Assembly (NCBI GenBank): GCA_963823665.1
Contig: CAWGMQ010000006.1
Location: 1,600,001 to 1,664,000 of the forward strand
Length of the DNA stretch: 64,000 bases
Reading direction: 5' to 3'
Origin: an uncultured Planctomycetota bacterium
GTDB lineage: Bacteria; Planctomycetota; Planctomycetia; Isosphaerales; Isosphaeraceae
In this document: one piece after another, positions 9,731 to 25,085 of the stretch
How the letters are laid out: every line of letters begins with the position of its first letter
Position numbering within the stretch: position 1 is the first letter of the stretch
Notes under the pieces: model-generated
Database searches by the model: none
What the model was told of the DNA's origin: nothing
The model's input: the letters and a program-made list of their open reading frames with translations, nothing else
Translations under genes and position numbers: made by a program

Positions 9731-9788
9731 CTAACGGCCAACCAGGTATAGACTCAGCTTCAAGCTGTGCGCTATGCTGGGTGTACAT

Positions 9789-9864
9789 CGGGGCGTAGCG
9801 CAGCTTGGATTAGCGCGCTTGCTTGGGGTGCAAGAGGTCACCGGTTCAAATCCGGTCGCCCCGA
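9789..9864 (+). tRNA. tRNA-Pro(GGG)
   Basis: Acceptor stem CGGGGCG/CGCCCCG, anticodon arm CTTGC-TTGGGGT-GCAAG, T-arm ACCGG-TTCAAAT-CCGGT; CCA not encoded. Confidence 0.96.
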
Positions 9865-9866
9865 TT
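9823..9866 (+). repeat. attL core, 44-bp direct repeat (3' half of tRNA-Pro)
   Basis: TTGGGGTGCAAGAGGTCACCGGTTCAAATCCGGTCGCCCCGATT, identical at 25042-25085. Confidence 0.96.
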
Positions 9867-9997: not shown

Positions 9998-11215
9998 ATG
10001 CGACCGAAGAACATCATTCCCACCTACCGACTCCACCAGGCGACCGGGCAAGCTCGTTGCGTCGTCAACGGCAAGACTCACTACCTGGGACCGTACGAAA
10101 GCCCAGAATCCCGGCGCGAGTATGCACGCATCCTTACCGAGCTGGCGGCCGGTAACGGGGTAGTCGCTACCCCGATTCCGGCTCCGTCTGGTACCACGTC
10201 AACGCCCGCCACGTCTGTCTTCGTCTCTGAACTCATCTTAGCTTACAGACGGCATGCGGCGGAATATTACGTCAAGAATGGTCGCAAGACTTCCGAAGTC
10301 GCGATCGTGAAGATGGCAACTGACGTCGTCCACGAGTTGTACCAGCAAAGCCAGGTGACGGAGTTCGGCCCTCTGGCGCTCACGGCATGCCAGCAAAAAC
10401 TCATCGATCAAAAGCTTGCTCGCTCGAGCGTCAACAAGCTGGTGAATCGAATTCGCCTCATGTTCAAGTGGGGTGTCGCGCACCAGATGGTGCCAGAATC
10501 CGTTCATCGGGCGCTTGAGTGCGTCGAGGGGCTTCGCAAGGGACGGAGCAAGGCGACGGAATCGAGAAAGATTCGTCCGGTTCCCGACCAGATCGTAGGC
10601 AAGGCAAGCCCGTTCATGCCGCGGCAGGTGGCTGCGATGGTGCAGCTCCAATCCTTGACCGGGTGCAGGCCCGGCGAAATCGTCATCATCCGCGGGTGTG
10701 ACCTGAACATGAGTGGCAAAATCTGGGAGTACAAGCCGGCGGCATGGAAAACAGAACATCACGAAGACGTTGCCGAGCGAGTGATCTACATCGGCCCGAA
10801 AGCCCAGCGGGTTCTCAAACCGTGGCTCCGTCCCAATTTGAGCGACTACCTGTTCAGCCCGAAAGAAGCGCTTGCCGAGCTCAATGCTGAGCGGCGTGAA
10901 AGTCGCAAGACGCCCGTCTATCCCTCGCATCAAGCCCGCTACGAGCGCGAGAAGGCCCGCCGAGGCCGTCGACCAGATCACGACCACTACACCGTGGAAA
11001 ACTACCGCCAGGCAATCGAGCGCGCTTGCGAAAAGGCCAAGGTGCCAGCGTTCAAGCCGAATCAGTTGCGGCATAGCCTGGCAACCCGGCTCCGTCGAGA
11101 CTTTGGACTCGAGGCCACGGCGGCGGTGCTCGGACATGAGGAATTGGAAACCAGCCAGATTTACGCCGAGAAAGACGCGAAGCTGGCCAAGCAGGTGATG
11201 GGCAAGATCGGTTAA
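9998..11215 (+). CDS. Tyrosine recombinase / phage integrase
   Basis: TGCRPGE, WKT, NQLRH, VLGH and TSQIY catalytic motifs; N-terminal arm-binding-like region; adjacent to attL. Confidence 0.95.
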   Translation: MRPKNIIPTYRLHQATGQARCVVNGKTHYLGPYESPESRREYARILTELAAGNGVVATPIPAPSGTTSTPATSVFVSELILAYRRHAAEYYVKNGRKTSEVAIVKMATDVVHELYQQSQVTEFGPLALTACQQKLIDQKLARSSVNKLVNRIRLMFKWGVAHQMVPESVHRALECVEGLRKGRSKATESRKIRPVPDQIVGKASPFMPRQVAAMVQLQSLTGCRPGEIVIIRGCDLNMSGKIWEYKPAAWKTEHHEDVAERVIYIGPKAQRVLKPWLRPNLSDYLFSPKEALAELNAERRESRKTPVYPSHQARYEREKARRGRRPDHDHYTVENYRQAIERACEKAKVPAFKPNQLRHSLATRLRRDFGLEATAAVLGHEELETSQIYAEKDAKLAKQVMGKIG

Positions 11216-11760: not shown

Positions 11761-12192
11761 ATGTCCCGTCCGCGAATTCTTGACGAAGATCGATTGACGC
11801 TCGAAGAGGCCCGCGAACACTTCGGGACAAACGGAACGCCCGCTGATTTCACAACGGTCTATCGCGCCGTTGTCAAAGGCAGCGCTCTTCCAGACGGTGG
11901 TAGTCTGCACCTTGAGGCCATTCGGCTAGCAGGGCGATGGATCACGAGTAAGCAGGCGATTGAACGCTTTGTCGTCGCCTTGACCGAAGCATGGTCAGGC
12001 CGCGCACGAACGGGCCGAAGATCGCCACCAGGCGAGAGCGTAAACAGCTCTCCGACGCGGATGAAGCGCGGCTCGAGAGAGCAAATGCTGAACTGGCGGC
12101 GATGGCCTAACCGCGCAACGAAAACGGCCGGCCCGATGGTCAATCTTGCCGACCGTGTTCGTCATCTCATTCAGGAATACGGAACATCATGA
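11761..12192 (+). CDS. DUF1580-family HTH protein (AlpA/excisionase-like); 3' end uncertain
   Basis: LTLEEA...TTVYRAVVKG...LEAIRLAGRWITSKQAIERF, typical of planctomycete DUF1580. Confidence 0.8.
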   Translation: MSRPRILDEDRLTLEEAREHFGTNGTPADFTTVYRAVVKGSALPDGGSLHLEAIRLAGRWITSKQAIERFVVALTEAWSGRARTGRRSPPGESVNSSPTRMKRGSREQMLNWRRWPNRATKTAGPMVNLADRVRHLIQEYGTS

Positions 12193-12503: not shown

Positions 12504-12724
12504 GGCCCCTATCCGGGCAGCAGAGTTTTCCGTTTGCTGCACCGACGCCCGCCGTCGCGGCCGCGGTGGTCGAAGATGGTCCACCGTGTTTGAAGTGCAA
12601 CCGGGCAACTGTCGTTTCCGGCGGCAAAGGCCCGCACTATAAGCGTGCCGATTGTCGCTCGTGTGGCGCGTGGTTCTGGATGCCAAAACCGAGGGCCGGC
12701 GGGCAAGGGGGCGCGTCGTCATGA
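12500..12724 (+). CDS. Small zinc-ribbon protein
   Basis: CLKC...GPHYKRADCRSC; ATGA overlaps on both sides. Confidence 0.65.
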   Translation: MRPLSGQQSFPFAAPTPAVAAAVVEDGPPCLKCNRATVVSGGKGPHYKRADCRSCGAWFWMPKPRAGGQGGASS

Positions 12725-15294
12725 CCTGCATGCTCGAGCGTTCCGCATTCGATACGGCACTACTGGCGCTTGACCTGGGGCTTTCGCCCGGTGTGCCGAT
12801 GCAAGACGGATCGAAGAAACCGGACGGGGCATGGAAGCAATACCAGACGAATCCAGCGACCAAGGGCGAGCTCGAGTCATGGTATCGGGACGGCCGAACG
12901 GGGGTCGGCTTGTTCACGGGATACGGCGACGCCGAATGTTTCGAGTTCGATTGCCGCGCGACCTATGACGATTTCTTGGACGCGCACGGCGACGCCGGGT
13001 TAACGGAATTGGTCGATCGCATCCGGTCGAACTATGAGGAATCCTCGCCAGGCGGTGGCATTCACTGGCTGTATCGGTGCTCGGAACGGCGGGGGAACAC
13101 AAAGCTGGCTGAACGGCCGGCGCCAACCGAGAGCGACCCGCACAAGACGGACGCGCTGATTGAAACTCGCGGAGAAGGCGGTTTTATCATCATCGCGCCG
13201 AGTAACGGGACGGTGCATCCGAGCGGCGGTGCATACAAACTCTTGAGCGGCGCACTCGGAATCATGGCAGTCATCACGCCGGAGGAACGCGACGCGCTCT
13301 GGAATTTCGCCCGGACGTTCGATGAAAAGCCAGAGCAGGCGACGGCGAAGTCGGGACCGTCTGAATTCGTTCAACGAGCATGGGATGGTCCGGCACGAAC
13401 GGACGGCAAGAAACCAGGCGAAGCCTTCAACGAGCAAATGACCTGGGAGGACATTCTCGAGCCGCACGGATGGACGGTGGCGTTTCGTCGGGGCGATAAG
13501 ACCTGGTGGCGGCGACCCGGCAAAGATCGCGACTGGTCGGCAACAACGGGGCATTGCAAAGGGCTCAAGGTCTTTTCGTCGTCCACGCCGTTCAGCACTC
13601 AGGGCACATACACCAAGTTCGGCGCGCACGCGATCTTGAACCACGGTGGCGATTTCAAGCAATCGACGAAGGCACTCGCCGCGGCTGGATTTGGTGAACA
13701 GTCGAGCCAGACCACGAAATCAACCCAGCAATCGCAGCCGACAGCACCGTCCGCGCCGCCGGTGTTTGATGGCGATCCGAGGCCGATCACGATCGCATTG
13801 CATCCGGTGCCGGAGCTCGATCCGCGCATGATCCCGCCGGTGTTCAGGGCATGGCTCGAGGATATTGCAGAGTGCGCATGCCTTCCGCTCGCCTATCCCG
13901 CGGCGGCGCTGTTCGTTGCTCTCAGCGGTCTGATCGGCCGGCGGGTTGCGATCCGTCCCAAGCAATTCGATGACTGGCTTGTCGTGCCGAATCTCTGGGG
14001 TGCCATCGTCGGGCCGCCGGGTTTCTTGAAGACCCCGGCAGTCGAGGCCGTCATGCGTCCGCTCAAGCGGCTTGTGGCCGATGCAATGGCAGAGCACGCC
14101 GCAAAGGTGAAGGAGCATAACGAGCGCCAGCTTGTCGCGACGGCTCGAAGGAAGGCCGCGCAGAAGAACCTGGACGCGGCCGCCAAGAAACCAGACGCGA
14201 CGGAAGCGGACCTGCAAGCACTCGCCAAGATTGCCTTGGCAGACGACACAGAAGAAGAACCGACGTGCAAGCGGTATCTCGTGAACGATTTCACGATCGA
14301 AAAACTGGGTGAATTACTGGTCGAGAACCCGAACGGGTTGACAGTGTTCCGAGATGAGTTGACCGGGTTGCTCAATACGCTGAATCGTGAGGGTCACCAG
14401 AGCGACCGGGGTTTTCTTCTCGAATCGTGGAACGGCAACGGGTCTTACACGTTCGATCGGATCGGCCGGGGCACTCAGCACATACCGGCGGCATGCCTGG
14501 CGCTCTTCGGGACCATCCAGCCCGGACCGCTCGCCCGGTATATGCAAGGGACCATCAAGGGCGATGAGGCGGACGGGTTTATCCCGCGGTTCCAGGTGCT
14601 CGTCTATCCGGACCCGCCGGCAAGCTATGACTATGTTGACCGATGGCCGGACAACGTGGCGAAGAACCACGCTTACAAAGTCTTCAAGGCAATCGACGAA
14701 TTGAACGCGGCGGAGAAAGGATGCAAGGTCGACAGCGACAGCGGGTTTCCCGTCATCAATTTCACACCAGAGGCGCAAGCGTTTTTCAACGGGTGGTATA
14801 CCGACCTGCAACGGCGAATCCGAAGCGGCGAGTTGACGGATATCCTGGCGGCGCATCTTGCGAAGTATGGCTCTTTGATGCCGAGCCTCGCTTTGATCTT
14901 TTATCTCGCGAATGACTGCCAAGCGTTCCAGCTTGGTGGCGTTCCGCTCGAAGATGCGGAAATGGCGGCGGCGTGGTGTGAGTATCTCGAGCAACACGCG
15001 CGGCGGGTCTACCTGCTATGTGCCGATGGCGACGTATCGGTTGCCGGGTCCCTCGCAGAGCGGATCAAGGAATCGCTGCCTGACCCGTTCACGTATCGCC
15101 AGGTGGCACAGAAGGGATGGTCAGGCCTGGGGACGGTGGACGACGTGGAAAGGGCTGTAGGCATCCTGGAAGACCGCGAGTGGGTCAAGACGGTCGAGGT
15201 TAAGTCGGGCGATGCGGCCGGACGGGGCAGACCATCGGTGAAGGTGCACATCCACCCGAAGCTTCGATCCGCCGGCGAAGGGGTGTCGTCATGA
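12721..15294 (+). CDS. Bifunctional primase-polymerase domain fused to DUF3987 (YfjI-like P-loop) replication protein
   Basis: KKP...WKQYQ, FEFD, SPGGGIHW, IETRGEGGFIIIAPS (Prim-Pol); PNLWGAIVGPPGFLKTP, FRDELTG, DRIGRG, GTIQP, DGFIPRF (DUF3987). Confidence 0.9.
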   Translation: MTCMLERSAFDTALLALDLGLSPGVPMQDGSKKPDGAWKQYQTNPATKGELESWYRDGRTGVGLFTGYGDAECFEFDCRATYDDFLDAHGDAGLTELVDRIRSNYEESSPGGGIHWLYRCSERRGNTKLAERPAPTESDPHKTDALIETRGEGGFIIIAPSNGTVHPSGGAYKLLSGALGIMAVITPEERDALWNFARTFDEKPEQATAKSGPSEFVQRAWDGPARTDGKKPGEAFNEQMTWEDILEPHGWTVAFRRGDKTWWRRPGKDRDWSATTGHCKGLKVFSSSTPFSTQGTYTKFGAHAILNHGGDFKQSTKALAAAGFGEQSSQTTKSTQQSQPTAPSAPPVFDGDPRPITIALHPVPELDPRMIPPVFRAWLEDIAECACLPLAYPAAALFVALSGLIGRRVAIRPKQFDDWLVVPNLWGAIVGPPGFLKTPAVEAVMRPLKRLVADAMAEHAAKVKEHNERQLVATARRKAAQKNLDAAAKKPDATEADLQALAKIALADDTEEEPTCKRYLVNDFTIEKLGELLVENPNGLTVFRDELTGLLNTLNREGHQSDRGFLLESWNGNGSYTFDRIGRGTQHIPAACLALFGTIQPGPLARYMQGTIKGDEADGFIPRFQVLVYPDPPASYDYVDRWPDNVAKNHAYKVFKAIDELNAAEKGCKVDSDSGFPVINFTPEAQAFFNGWYTDLQRRIRSGELTDILAAHLAKYGSLMPSLALIFYLANDCQAFQLGGVPLEDAEMAAAWCEYLEQHARRVYLLCADGDVSVAGSLAERIKESLPDPFTYRQVAQKGWSGLGTVDDVERAVGILEDREWVKTVEVKSGDAAGRGRPSVKVHIHPKLRSAGEGVSS

Positions 15295-15326: not shown

Positions 15327-15537
15327 GTTTCTGTAGTTTCTGTAGGCAGTTCCGGACATAGATATGAAGAAAAAACGGACTATAAAATATCTTACTTACT
15401 TACCTTACCTACCTTACTAAATAACCACATAGGTGCGCGGATAGAAAAACTTACTCATTCCTTTGGCCAGGTGCCTACAGAAACTACGAAACCCGTCGCC
15501 AAATCGGAACGAATCGATTCTGTAGTTTTCGTAGGCA
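15327..15537. repeat. Iteron-like repeats around an AT-rich tract (putative replication origin)
   Basis: GTTTCTGTAGTTTCTGTAGGCA (15327-15348), inverted copy (15472-15492), ATTCTGTAGTTTTCGTAGGCA (15517-15537); CTTA/CCTA tandem at 15391-15417. Confidence 0.7.
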
Positions 15538-16164: not shown

Positions 16165-16194
16165 GCGCATGCAGTCGCGTGTTCAAGTGCAGAC

Positions 16195-16300
16195 GGGGGT
16201 ATGGGGGGGTATGGCTAGGCTAGGCGGGGCGGGTCAACACCTAGAAGTTGTGCGCCGTAAACCGCAGGTGGCCAAATCCGTGCTTGCAATCAGGTTTTTG
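16195..16300 (+). other. Putative cos-type packaging site
   Basis: Non-coding G-run region with GGGGCGGGTCAA...AAACCGCAGGTGGCCAAA...GGTTTTT upstream of a P27-type terS, the arrangement seen in HK97-like cos phages. Confidence 0.55.
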
Positions 16301-16447: not shown

Positions 16448-16816
16448 ATGAGCACAGCCAAGAACCTGAAGATTCGACCGGCGAACCCGGACCCGCCATC
16501 CCACTTGTCCAACAAGGCCGCGGAAATGTGGCGCGCGATGGTCGCCGATTACCGCATGGCAGATGACTGCGTCGGGCTCGGCTTGCTTGAGGCCGCGCTA
16601 TCTGCCTTCGACCGGGCCGAGGAGGCGCGAGAGGTTCTTGACAGGGAAGGTCTGACCGTCAGCGGCGACCGCGGCGGGTCAAAAGCTCACCCGTTGTGTG
16701 CGGTCGAGCGCGACAACCGAGCAGCTTACATCGCGGGGATCAAGGCGCTCAGATTCGACGTCGTCGCAGCGCGGCCGGGACCTGGACGTCCAGCCGGCCC
16801 GGCGCGGAGGTACTGA
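16448..16816 (+). CDS. terS: Phage terminase small subunit, P27 family
   Basis: PPSHLS..A.EMW, LLEAA, AREVLDREGLTV, GGSKAHP. Confidence 0.88.
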   Translation: MSTAKNLKIRPANPDPPSHLSNKAAEMWRAMVADYRMADDCVGLGLLEAALSAFDRAEEAREVLDREGLTVSGDRGGSKAHPLCAVERDNRAAYIAGIKALRFDVVAARPGPGRPAGPARRY

Positions 16817-16818
16817 CC

Positions 16819-17253
16819 ATGTCAACCCAACGGTATCAATCCCGACGACCTGGGGGCGCGGCGGTGGAGCTGGATCGACTCGCCGAGTTCATGATTTTGG
16901 AAGCGCCCAATTCCGAGGGGCTGGACGAGGCGTTCGTCGCGGATTGGTGGGCGCAGAACGGCGAGCGCATCACCGAGGAGTGGATCGCCAGGCATCCCGG
17001 CTCGCGTCCGTGGCCGTGGTGGTGCTGGGATCACGGCAAGGAAAGGCCCGTCATCAACCCTGACCACGATCCCGCCTGCGATTTTGCCGTCAGGCGAGAT
17101 TCGTTTTTTGGCTTCGTTCACTCCGGAGTGTTTTCCGTCCAGCGCGGAGCGGACGGAAAGCTCTCTCATTCACCGTGGCAGGAACCCGAAGCAGACTACC
17201 TTGACCGCCGCGGTCTTTTGACGGAGACGGAACGGGAGCATTTTGACCTCTAA
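16819..17253 (+). CDS. Trp-rich hypothetical protein between terS and capsid
   Basis: WIARHPGSRPWPWWCWD...EPEADYLDRRGLL; 2-3 nt gaps to both neighbours. Confidence 0.75.
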   Translation: MSTQRYQSRRPGGAAVELDRLAEFMILEAPNSEGLDEAFVADWWAQNGERITEEWIARHPGSRPWPWWCWDHGKERPVINPDHDPACDFAVRRDSFFGFVHSGVFSVQRGADGKLSHSPWQEPEADYLDRRGLLTETEREHFDL

Positions 17254-17256
17254 CGC

Positions 17257-18612
17257 ATGAGTTTTCGATCACGTTTCAACCCTGATTTTCACCGAGAGAG
17301 GAAAACACCTATGAGTGCTTTGCAAACGAGAACCCGCCGGCGCGACACCATTCCCAAGGGCGGCGACCGGCTGGTTGACGACGAAATCGAGGACGCCTTC
17401 GGCGGAGACGGACCCAGCGACCCCGACCCGACGCAGCCCGACAATTCCAAGTTCGGCCAGCTTCCCGGATTGAAGGCGCTCTACGACGCTGCGAAGAAAG
17501 GCTACTTCTACAGCTTCGGCCGGGCGATCCACGGGGCTTTCAAGGCCGGACCGAACGGCACGCTTCCCGGACTCGAAGGCGAAGTCTCTCAGGAGATGTT
17601 GCTTCGCGCGCCCAATCAGCGGCGTGGTTACCGGGTGCCCTGGGTTTATCCGAGGCGTCCGGGCGAGCGCCGCGCCCTAACGTTGAGCGCCGGCGCAGGA
17701 AGCGTTACTCCGCAGCTTCAATCTCCCGTGGATGTTTTGCGCTCCAAGATGGTGTGCCAGCGGCTCGGCGCGAACGTCACCAACTTCACGGGCGAAGGAC
17801 CGCAAGGATTTATTCAAATCCCATTCAGATCGGCCGGCAGTACGGCGAGCTGGGTTGCCGAAAATGCGGCGCCGTCATCGTCCAGCAACGCCACGACGCA
17901 GGGGTGGGTCATGAAACCCAACACCGTCACGGCCTACTCGGACATCACGCGCCGGATGTTGACTCTCGGTCAGGAAGGATTTGAAGCCTACTCGCTCGCG
18001 GAGGTCATGCGATCAATCGCAGTCGAGGTCGATCGCGCGACGCTCAACGGCTCTGGTCAGAATTCGCAGCCCCTGGGAATCCTGCAAGACTTCCTGCCCA
18101 GCGTGACTCCCGCGGCTGGGCTGGGTGGTTCGATCGCCATCGCGGACTTGTACGAAATCGAGGCGACGCTTGGCCAGAATAACGGCGACGCGCCCGCCGA
18201 TTCTCGACTCGGCTGGGTCACCTCTCCCGCGGGCCGCAAGGCTCTGCGAAAAGTCGACCTGGGCGGCGCCACGGACACCGGGCACCCGGCGTGGTGGCCG
18301 AAAACCTACATCGTCGACAACAAGCCGGTCATTATCGAGGAATTGATCGGATGGCCGGCCCTTTCGACGTGTTCGGTGCCTGCCAACCTGAACGCTTCAA
18401 ACTACACGACGCTCGCTCTGGGTAATTGGAACGATGTGATCATCAATTTATGGGATGGCTTCGATTTCAACGCCATGCCCGCCACGGTAGTTAACCCCTT
18501 CCTTCAGAGCGTTTCGGGTGTCGTGCGCGTAAGTTGCTTTGTTGACGCCGACGTGTTGCTTGTTCGACCGGGTTCATTCTGTCTCTGCGCCGGCTGGGCG
18601 GCGCCGTACTGA
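17257..18612 (+). CDS. HK97-fold major capsid protein or capsid homologue (alternative start 17311)
   Basis: IQIP...ASWVAENAA, MKPNTVTAYSDITRRML, EVDRATLNGSG..QPLGIL, LALGNW, VRV...VDADV..RPGSF. Confidence 0.9.
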   Translation: MSFRSRFNPDFHRERKTPMSALQTRTRRRDTIPKGGDRLVDDEIEDAFGGDGPSDPDPTQPDNSKFGQLPGLKALYDAAKKGYFYSFGRAIHGAFKAGPNGTLPGLEGEVSQEMLLRAPNQRRGYRVPWVYPRRPGERRALTLSAGAGSVTPQLQSPVDVLRSKMVCQRLGANVTNFTGEGPQGFIQIPFRSAGSTASWVAENAAPSSSSNATTQGWVMKPNTVTAYSDITRRMLTLGQEGFEAYSLAEVMRSIAVEVDRATLNGSGQNSQPLGILQDFLPSVTPAAGLGGSIAIADLYEIEATLGQNNGDAPADSRLGWVTSPAGRKALRKVDLGGATDTGHPAWWPKTYIVDNKPVIIEELIGWPALSTCSVPANLNASNYTTLALGNWNDVIINLWDGFDFNAMPATVVNPFLQSVSGVVRVSCFVDADVLLVRPGSFCLCAGWAAPY

Positions 18613-18651: not shown

Positions 18652-19189
18652 ATGACGGAAGCGGAAGAACAAGCGATGTTCGACAAGATGGTGGCACTGC
18701 GGGCCTGCGCCGCCTTGCAGGGTCCGTTTGACCGATCGCTGCAAGGGATTCCTGCGCGGACTCGTTTGGAAAACGACCGGCGACGAAGTGGAGCTCTCGG
18801 TACCCGAGGCGCAGGCACTGTGCGACAAGGGGCACGCCGAACCAGTCGGGCCGGCGGCTTGGTTCAAGAAATTCGTGGCTGCGATAAGGCCAGCACCCGA
18901 GGGACCGCCACGGCTCGACAAGCCAGGCCCGGGCCGAAGTTATCGAGGCCGAATGCGTCCAGGGAAGTCGTACTGGTACGCCGCCGGGCTCGAGTCCTAC
19001 GGTGACGATCGAGATATCTGGATCGACGAGGATACCGCGCGGGTGCTTGCGAATGCTCGCCAGTTTCAGCCGATCGAACCCAACTATATCCCGCCGGCGC
19101 CGGAAACGCCGGTCAAGCCAACCTGGCCGACGAATCAGTGGGGTTGCTCACCGATGGTCGGGCCGCCGCTTGGGCAACCTGAACACTGA
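18652..19189 (+). CDS. Hypothetical protein following capsid (probable frameshift near 18730)
   Basis: ORF from 18652 appears to join the frame of ORF 18728-19189. Confidence 0.5.
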
Positions 19190-21058: not shown

Positions 21059-21727
21059 ATGTCGAAAGACTCCGACTTATTCGGTGTTGTCGTAATCGGG
21101 GCAATGAACCCGCGAATTCATCATCCGGCGTGGTACCAGTTGGTAAAACTGATTAGCGGCCAAGAAGCAGAACATGCCACCCAAACGCAGCCAGTCGTGT
21201 GTACTCCAGCGTATTCCCAATTCGGACTGGGCGAGATCGATATCAAGTGTCTACCCGACCGATGGGACATAACAACCCGATCGAGCGCGAACATCGATCG
21301 AATCCGCGAAATCGCACAACGGCTGTTCGACGATGTGCTCCTGCACACTCCGGTAAACATCGTGGCGCTAAATTTCGAGTACGTCCGTCAGGTTTCCGGT
21401 GCAAACGCAACGGAGATTATCGCTCGGAAGTTGAACGTCGCGGCCGGGGAGTTGGGCCTGGGCAATGCGGAGGCGGGTGATCTTTTTCTAAAGCGAGCCC
21501 TTGTGACGAACGAATCCGTGCAAGGAATCGCGACTGTCATAGTACGGACTGCGGACAGCTCGGATATGTTCGGGCTTTCTTGCAATTATCAATATACGAT
21601 AAGGCTTAGCGACGGACTGTTTCGGTTCGACGCGTTTCTGCCCGAATATGCACAGCGTGACCGAGTTGACGCGGAACAATCACTAGCGCGACTGACATCC
21701 GCGATAGCTTCCGCGCGAAAGGACTAA
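21059..21727 (+). CDS. Cargo gene 1, hypothetical (TIGR04255-like by pattern)
   Basis: VVVIGAMNPRIHHPAWY...LLHTPVNIVALNF; GGAG RBS; more AT-rich than host genes. Confidence 0.8.
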   Translation: MSKDSDLFGVVVIGAMNPRIHHPAWYQLVKLISGQEAEHATQTQPVVCTPAYSQFGLGEIDIKCLPDRWDITTRSSANIDRIREIAQRLFDDVLLHTPVNIVALNFEYVRQVSGANATEIIARKLNVAAGELGLGNAEAGDLFLKRALVTNESVQGIATVIVRTADSSDMFGLSCNYQYTIRLSDGLFRFDAFLPEYAQRDRVDAEQSLARLTSAIASARKD

Positions 21728-21730
21728 CCC

Positions 21731-22336
21731 GTGGCCATTGCGATCCAAATGCCGACATCTTTGAAGAACGAAAATCTTTTCGCCGAAACAATGGATACTT
21801 GGCAGTCAATCGAGACGGCTCTCGTGGACTGCTGGCGCATGTTCGGCGGCGCTCCAGTCTCGCCAGCGATCTCGGTGCAGGGAGCGCTGGAACGGAGCGC
21901 GGACCAAGCCCAAATCCTCCACGACCACGCCTTACGTTTGTCCGGTAGGCTTATGGTTCACAAACAATTGGAGCGAGTGCGGCGACTGCGGCAAAACTGG
22001 GACGGCGACGGTGCCGATCCGATCAACCCGGCGATCATCGCAACAGCCAGCCGATTCCTTGCTAAGTTCGGAGACAGCTTTCGCACTTCGCCGCGCGTCG
22101 TTCCAATGACAATGGGTCGAGTTCAATTGGAATGGCATCGGGGCAACCGTTCGCTGGAAATCGAATTTGAGACGCCTGAACTTGTACACTATCTGAAGTG
22201 GGATAGCGACGAGGCCATCGAAGAGGAAGAACTTATCCCTGCTTCGTCGGAAGTCGCTATTAGAAATCTACTGTTGTGGTTCTCCTCGGAGAAGAGGAAT
22301 GCCGATCCCGCCGGACGCAGGTCCACAAGTGCCTGA
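21731..22336 (+). CDS. Cargo gene 2, hypothetical (NWDG.GA.PI...GRVQLEW type)
   Basis: 3 nt after gene 1; LRQNWDGDGADPINP...PMTMGRVQLEWHRGNRSLEIEF. Confidence 0.8.
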   Translation: MAIAIQMPTSLKNENLFAETMDTWQSIETALVDCWRMFGGAPVSPAISVQGALERSADQAQILHDHALRLSGRLMVHKQLERVRRLRQNWDGDGADPINPAIIATASRFLAKFGDSFRTSPRVVPMTMGRVQLEWHRGNRSLEIEFETPELVHYLKWDSDEAIEEEELIPASSEVAIRNLLLWFSSEKRNADPAGRRSTSA

Positions 22337-22700
22337 TTTCGAGAATGTACTTAGAGGAATAGTCGACGAAATGCAATGGGATTGTGAAAGCGACTGTCCC
22401 TCGAGCGCTGCCTTCGATAAGGCGATATTCTCTGTGGATCGAAGCGCGCTTACTACGCCGCCGGAAACTGTCGCCAGACTTCGCTCGTTTGGCATGTCAG
22501 TTCTAGCCTTGGTGGAGTTCAACTGTGGAGAGGCGAGGAAACATGGTTTTGATACGCGGGACGAGCGCGACGATGTGGCTCCTGATAACGCCGCGCACGC
22601 GCATGTCTACAATTTGTGGTACACCGAAGAGTCAACCAAAGCCGGGCGCAAGAAAAAAGCCAGAAAAATGAAGGATATCTGCTCAAAAGTGACGTTCTGA
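22299..22700 (+). CDS. Cargo gene 3, putative ADP-ribosyltransferase-fold toxin
   Basis: VLRG...PSSAAF...FSVD...NAAHAHV pattern; overlaps gene 2 by 38 nt. Confidence 0.65.
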   Translation: MPIPPDAGPQVPDFENVLRGIVDEMQWDCESDCPSSAAFDKAIFSVDRSALTTPPETVARLRSFGMSVLALVEFNCGEARKHGFDTRDERDDVAPDNAAHAHVYNLWYTEESTKAGRKKKARKMKDICSKVTF

Positions 22701-25041: not shown

Positions 25042-25085
25042 TTGGGGTGCAAGAGGTCACCGGTTCAAATCCGGTCGCCCCGATT
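25042..25085 (+). repeat. attR core, 44-bp direct repeat
   Basis: Identical to 9823-9866. Confidence 0.96.

Follow-up and report, generated by a model that had tools for sequence, protein, structure and literature searches.

PICIs are described in SatelliteFinder by five core components, which include a capsid gene and terS, and the presence of TerL marks the cf-PICIs (PMC10085698). Capsid homologs are reported in EcCICFT073 and PmCI172 (PMC6092414), and PICI-like tycheposons are described as carrying capsid or terS (10.1101/2020.12.28.424599). The TerS-like protein Rpp of E. coli PICIs, which mimics the winged-helix TerS of lambda and forms a heterocomplex with it, redirects packaging; lambda TerS itself binds TerL via its C-terminal part (PMC6739421). 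SaPIbov5 relies on a helper cos site and encodes Ccm, a stand-alone HK97 capsid homolog that cannot form capsids alone and whose delta domain has 87 aa versus 128 in the helper capsid (PMC8569155). SaPI TerS with Ppi, and the PLE proteins Gpi, GpsA and GpsB, are small proteins through which satellites target the terminase of their helper, and one of the models offered for GpsA/B is that of an adaptor (PMC11417361).

Here, we describe an island within a 64,000-nt stretch of DNA (the window) from an uncultured planctomycete of the Isosphaeraceae. The island is very probably a PICI-type phage satellite. Its gene set is that of an ordinary PICI, with four of the five core parts detected: it shares with the PICIs of SatelliteFinder an integrase, a primase-replicase, a capsid-morphogenesis gene, terS and the lack of TerL, its size lies within the stated range and its terS-before-capsid order is a listed variant (PMC10085698). 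A sequence-only reading of the window had proposed that the element combines two known strategies; the pairing of TerS and capsid is not new, since both belong to the published PICI core (PMC10085698). The island differs from PICIs in having no AlpA, MerR or Stl match, in its planctomycete host (the main text of PMC10085698 does not contain 'planctomyc') and in a free TerL-type domain. It shares a capsid and terS of its own with cf-PICIs but is without TerL, portal, protease and head-tail connectors. Rpp is likewise a TerS-like satellite protein; the island TerS, however, belongs to the P27 type and is accompanied by a partner gene. That partner, a tryptophan-rich protein, is the new part of the island. 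Gpi, GpsA, GpsB and Ppi, compared with it by description alone, are not described as TerL-derived domains in the account given in PMC11417361.

The island and its host genome

The island is 15,263 bp (~15.3 kb) long and is integrated in tRNA-Pro(GGG) (9788-9865), with exact 44-bp direct repeats at both ends: attL (9823-9866), a core that covers the 3' part of the tRNA gene, and attR (25042-25085). Both repeats and the island genes listed below are given on the forward strand. A tyrosine integrase (9998-11215; PF00589, 52 bits; phrog_1) is followed by a small protein (11761-12192) that, to judge from its position, may be an excisionase or regulator; it has no family match in Pfam, PHROGs or NCBIfam, and a tblastn search located a homolog in the corresponding place of island L040. 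Among the small ORFs that follow the integrase, none matched AlpA, MerR or Stl in Pfam, PHROGs or NCBIfam, and a divergent regulator among them is possible. Next come a Prim-Pol plus DUF3987 primase-helicase, the replicase (12721-15294; PF09250, PF13148), and directly behind it three iteron-like 16-bp repeats, direct and inverted (15329-15537), whose position makes them a candidate origin. A G-run region upstream of terS (16189-16300) is a weak candidate for a cos/pac site; G5 runs also lie upstream of many related terS genes.

The packaging genes comprise terS (16448-16816), the Trp-rich gene (16819-17253) and a capsid gene (17311-18612, alternative start 17257). The capsid gene is followed by a fourth gene that the sequence-only reading had missed, a DUF7210-like gene (18652-19189; weak PF23843 match, E 0.021) that occupies two frames in the present assembly. 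In a public contig (run X1, depth 3.8), a single base of this gene is different, which suggests that the split is probably an assembly error. DUF7210 genes also come after the capsid in L034, L035 and L037. Further downstream are three low-GC cargo genes (21059-22700), the middle one of which (21731-22336) has a partial match to the candidate defence model PDC-M32A (E 1.3e-9). As the sequence-only reading had observed, there is no portal, protease, TerL or connector: none gave a family match when 28 island ORFs were scanned against Pfam and PHROGs, nor were other structural or lysis genes found among them. A promoter and terminator scan gave a yield close to the shuffled expectation.

The host genome (91.9% complete) contains one capsid match and no TerL or portal match (PF03354, PF04860); thus, the search revealed no HK97-type helper there. 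A same-family genome carries DUF1559, as would suit a planctomycete host. A same-genus genome (84% complete) has both island flanks, ~15.5 kb apart with a related integrase between them, and no capsid, TerS or Trp-rich-protein match. The tRNA-Pro site therefore takes exchangeable islands. No att junction was seen in the sequencing runs, whose cover of this DNA is patchy and low, and no RNA run is listed as containing it. We also noted several related islands. A second island in the host genome (L066; G000:C10 ~691600-700000) has no capsid match; it carries an integrase and a primase together with a TerS-like gene and a diverged version of the Trp-rich gene. Another island, at another site in that same-genus genome (G029:C4 1734860-1747328), has a replicase 70% identical to that of the window and no packaging-gene match. 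The closest island with the order terS, unknown gene, capsid is adjoined by a tRNA-SeC (L035:19028-19126), and a capsid-only island is adjoined by an array of 22 tRNAs (L047:14486-16839).

TerS and a capsid with a shortened delta domain

The island TerS (122 aa) has a Pro/Arg-rich C-terminal tail in alignment and matches phrog_83 (E 2.9e-10). PF05119 and TIGR01558 also match, below their cut-offs (30.3 bits for TIGR01558, against a curated cut-off of 45.6). Its family matches in PHROGs and NCBIfam are P27-type only, and the protein appears to represent a divergent subfamily of that type; its profile gave no solved-structure match. In phages, TerL is preceded by the same TerS subfamily.

The capsid passes the cut-offs of PF05065 (74 bits) and TIGR01554 (64.6 bits). 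Its start is more likely at 17311 (433 aa) than at 17257, because GAGAGGAAAA lies upstream and the closest homolog, P0005, starts at the matching position. The sequence-only reading had described three tightly spaced genes with gaps of 2 and 3 nt; those are indeed the spacings of the ORFs 16448-16816, 16819-17253 and 17257-18612, but the second gap becomes 57 nt if the capsid starts at 17311. That reading had also seen an acidic, Pro/Gly-rich capsid N-terminus with no obvious coiled-coil delta domain. The region is 120 aa long, and the acidic Pro/Gly leader accounts for its first ~55 aa alone; the remainder is the conserved distal portion of a delta domain, found in prophage capsids too.

The island capsid has matches in 25 of 121 host-family genomes; we classed 20 of these places by a local TerL profile and took the R-A-L junction as the end of the delta domain. 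All ten capsids from TerL-less loci, the window included, have delta domains of 59-120 aa. In all ten prophage capsids the domain measures 140-168 aa, and its first half is helical and coiled-coil-like. In this sample, two pairs of the ten are near-copies, the contigs of L040 and L044 are short, gene calling missed L049, and L054 is fragmentary. A crude coiled-coil score ranged from 0.14 to 0.43 in the TerL-less loci versus 0.46 to 0.89 in prophages. The distal delta motif is kept in all compared capsids, from which the island N-terminus reads as a truncated delta domain plus an acidic leader. Like Ccm, the island capsid is a stand-alone satellite HK97 homolog with a delta domain shorter than in related phage capsids (PMC8569155), and this likeness suggests a Ccm-like role. 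Of the sequence-only proposal that the island combines the strategies of Rpp and Ccm, the Ccm half fits the shortened delta domain; the Rpp half finds no support in the family matches of the TerS, which are P27-type only.

Other small islands add structural genes in various ways. A prohead protease gene comes after the capsid gene, with neither portal nor TerL, in L040, L047, L090, L148 and L123. Tape-measure-like genes are present in many of L034, L035, L037, L038, L047, L048, L065, L079, L083, L087 and L125, and some of these islands add a tail chaperone or an HK97 gp10-like gene and no further tail genes; tail-length interference or the hijacking of short tails is a possible use.

The Trp-rich protein and its fusion to TerL

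The protein encoded at 16819-17253 (144 aa, with the motif PGSRPWPWW) belongs to no Pfam, PHROGs, NCBIfam or PADLOC family. A word-index search returned one relative, and a full HMMER search (E ≤ 0.001) returned a family of 222 representatives at 50% identity. Across an alignment of 113 members, R63 and L128 are invariant and W44, P60, G61, P64, W67, W68, R76, G98, Y127, L133, L134 and E138 are near-invariant. We considered whether the gene is a relic, that is, a functionless 5' remnant of a deleted terL in decaying prophages. Such an origin would account for its occupying the terL position and for the truncated or frameshifted copies in L063 and L072. Yet a family of this size with near-invariant residues, intact copies in islands of several phyla and neighboring capsids that form a short-delta group of their own make a relic extremely improbable.

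Structure prediction gave a confident model (pLDDT 88, pTM 0.80). It had no Foldseek match at E ≤ 0.001 in PDB or BFVD and no VIA-wide match at Z ≥ 2; note that an absent match does not prove a new fold. A SUKH/SMI1-like identity suggested by the ESM Atlas was rejected, the matches being sub-0.9 with few shared features, and the atlas returned nothing for the domain of database protein P0186, introduced below. Searches of the main text of openly available papers turned up neither this family nor any satellite said to carry a TerL-type domain on its own; the family could stand, under no name, in the SatelliteFinder profile lists or accessory-gene tables.

Homologs of the Trp-rich protein form the N-terminus of some large terminases, a relationship that the sequence-only reading had not seen. 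We found such fusions at six loci and in P0186. Two are full-length, with both halves of the domain on TerL: L081 (740 aa, domain E 1.2e-26; no terS in the DNA examined) and P0186 (660 aa, domain E 3.4e-27), which are 37% identical. The other five (L147, L149, L154, L157 and L161, all from the reverse set described below) share the N-terminal half alone (~75 aa). One further case is split rather than fused: the phage L162, which has a portal, encodes the domain as a gene of its own (89 aa), and a small inserted gene lies between it and a TerL that has its own start, so that a free form coexists with a packaging motor. HHalign of the free-protein profile against the five fused domains and the split one gave 98.2% (E 6e-14, 72 columns), and fused and split domains scored 15-38 bits against the free profile, with shuffles (200 each) reaching at most 6.2. 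The fused TerLs are not one clade and represent at least two lineages (AU p 0.031, 18 rows).

The TerL core of P0186 begins near residue 142-147, so the domain appears to be an addition to TerL and not its usual N-terminus. That it might be an ordinary N-terminal extension of all P27-type TerLs was rejected, as the best 30 of 2721 phage records align to P0186 from residue 113-147. The prophage TerLs of the host's family are without the domain, which was also not found in cultured phages; the family was not found in 300 genomes of a phylum-wide sample (13 candidates scored per genome).

At all six loci and in P0186 the fusion partner is TerL and never TerS, though terS is the nearer neighbor. 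This bears on a second alternative, in which the protein is a DNA-recognition subunit that makes contact with TerS and the cos/pac site, or acts as a TerS chaperone, and does not contact TerL, and the fusions merely reflect gene order. The Arg-rich N-terminal arm, kept in free and fused forms alike, would suit such a subunit, as would the translational coupling of the gene to terS; moreover, HK97 TerS is described as reading DNA by short flexible terminal segments (PMC11331095), which would leave room for a helper subunit. The choice of fusion partner runs counter to this explanation, which we regard as quite unlikely.

Proposed coupling of TerS to a helper terminase

Searches with the Trp-rich protein or its motifs (the forward set, with duplicate contigs merged and pattern matches without a profile score dropped) gave 35 distinct loci, comprising one TerL fusion and 34 stand-alone genes, for 26 of which at least 2 kb of downstream DNA was available. 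terS lies directly upstream in 31 of the 34, as called by PHROGs or Pfam for most loci and, for the others, by a local profile made from those calls. The three without an adjacent terS are L063 (degraded), L068 and L072, in which a piece of the domain runs into a host methyltransferase at the end of a contig; L072 is a probable chimera yet is counted among the 34. The lack of TerL and portal that the sequence-only reading expected of homologous loci was borne out, with TerL in 0 of 34 and a portal in 1; capsid, protease and integrase occur in 17, 6 and 21 of the 34, respectively. The linkage it proposed thus holds for terS and much less for the capsid. Stand-alone copies are found in hosts that include Schlesneria, Thioalkalivibrio, Acidobacteriota and Desulfobacterales/Desulfobulbaceae, and a short version is carried by a Methylobacterium plasmid. 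Cultured carriers among these are Thioalkalivibrio sp. AKL19 (L074) and Methylobacterium nodulans, with plasmid pMNOD03 (L130). In four loci of the host's family (L064-L067), the Trp-rich protein is paired with a TerS of an ordinary prophage clade. As a separate observation, L080 (1398-4288, on a contig of 4.3 kb) has terS, the Trp-rich gene, portal and protease in a row with no TerL between, in the manner of a cf-PICI-like head module without its motor.

These counts also bear on the idea that the island builds portal-less shells of its own, as an encapsulin-like or 'twilight' HK97 virus, with the Trp-rich protein as scaffold or cargo loader. Small integrating HK97 elements without a portal are described, namely encapsulin-enriched mini viruses with an encapsulin domain in the capsid (PMC13669383). 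As described there, though, those elements are without terminase genes, whereas the island has TerS; its capsid matches phage-capsid families alone (in Pfam, Phage_capsid alone), and the Trp-rich gene follows terS, not the capsid. Portal-less shells are, in our judgment, very unlikely.

A reverse set, obtained with two DNA patterns from TerS alone, comprised 28 distinct viral loci, 3 of them common to the forward set. The domain is present in 21 of the 28, as 16 free copies (14 adjoining terS) and the 5 fusions to TerL. By profile, 7 of 28 are without it, and this TerS subfamily does not require the domain. In three of these (L128, L146 and L158), the gene after terS is a TerL in which no copy can be detected, and in L128 and L158 the Arg-rich start alone remains. 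Separately, three loci (L124, L151 and L164) hold two family members each, either a short N-half and a longer form or two short ones.

In an unconstrained TerS tree, the fused-type TerS nest among the satellite TerS, but satellite TerS monophyly was not rejected by an AU test (p 0.50) on 48 of 65 rows that left out long-branch and unclassified rows. A Pro-rich tail occurs in 35 of 42 TerS adjoining a free copy (two of these 42 were assigned by visual inspection), in 0 of 5 TerS of fused or split cases and in 1 of 11 ordinary phage TerS, a distribution that weakened our candidate interaction between the Trp cluster and this tail.

Given its homology to TerL N-termini and its linkage to terS, the Trp-rich protein is best read as a terminase-associated domain. 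It probably acts on terminase, and the suggestion in the sequence-only reading of a candidate packaging factor was a good one. Because gene order links the domain to TerS, and fusion links it to TerL, the TerS-TerL interface is indicated; such fusions and gene neighborhoods are evidence of functional coupling but do not show bridging. Our preferred reading, to which we give slightly less than an even chance on this comparative evidence, is that the protein is a partner of the satellite TerS and connects it, in trans, with the TerL of a helper. Following the PICI model, helper infection would lead the island to excise and replicate, and its capsid, without the coiled-coil half of the delta domain, would co-assemble with the helper capsid into small heads, as Ccm does. 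The island TerS would recognize island DNA, and the Trp-rich protein would bind this TerS, perhaps also DNA via its Arg-rich arm, and dock the complex on the helper TerL. It would thus serve as a split-terminase adaptor, the non-covalent counterpart of the fused phage domain.

A free interaction domain could also be turned against the helper: as a decoy in the manner of SaPI Ppi or PLE Gpi, it would bind the helper's TerS or TerL and stop helper packaging, and the satellite TerS would engage TerL on its own. Freed from ATPase and nuclease, such a domain would be a natural dominant negative; TerS plus an inhibitor is a known SaPI strategy, and Gpi binds TerL (PMC11417361, PMC6739421). An arms race would also suit the short N-half versions and tandem copies in L123, L124, L130, L159 and L164. 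We nevertheless favor the adaptor and consider a decoy unlikely, because the Trp-rich gene is rarely without its own terS, because a decoy against this TerS subfamily would also strike the island's own TerS and because the phage L162 keeps a free copy inside its head module. More broadly, and more tentatively still, a widespread class of satellites may use a split terminase, in which TerS and a free TerL N-terminal docking domain are plugged onto helper motors, phages having joined the same domain to TerL, or separated it from TerL, on more than one occasion.

The TerS-TerL interface of HK97-type cos phages is poorly defined, and it is described as transient and hard to assemble in vitro (PMC11331095). 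A small soluble domain that is joined to TerL in some loci and stands alone next to TerS in others gives direct access to this interface. If the adaptor reading is true, these satellites would have a packaging-hijack strategy beyond cos mimicry, Rpp, TerS plus Ppi, and Gpi; if the decoy reading is true, the family would be a new one of terminase inhibitors. On either, the Trp-rich gene would be a marker for satellites in poorly studied phyla.
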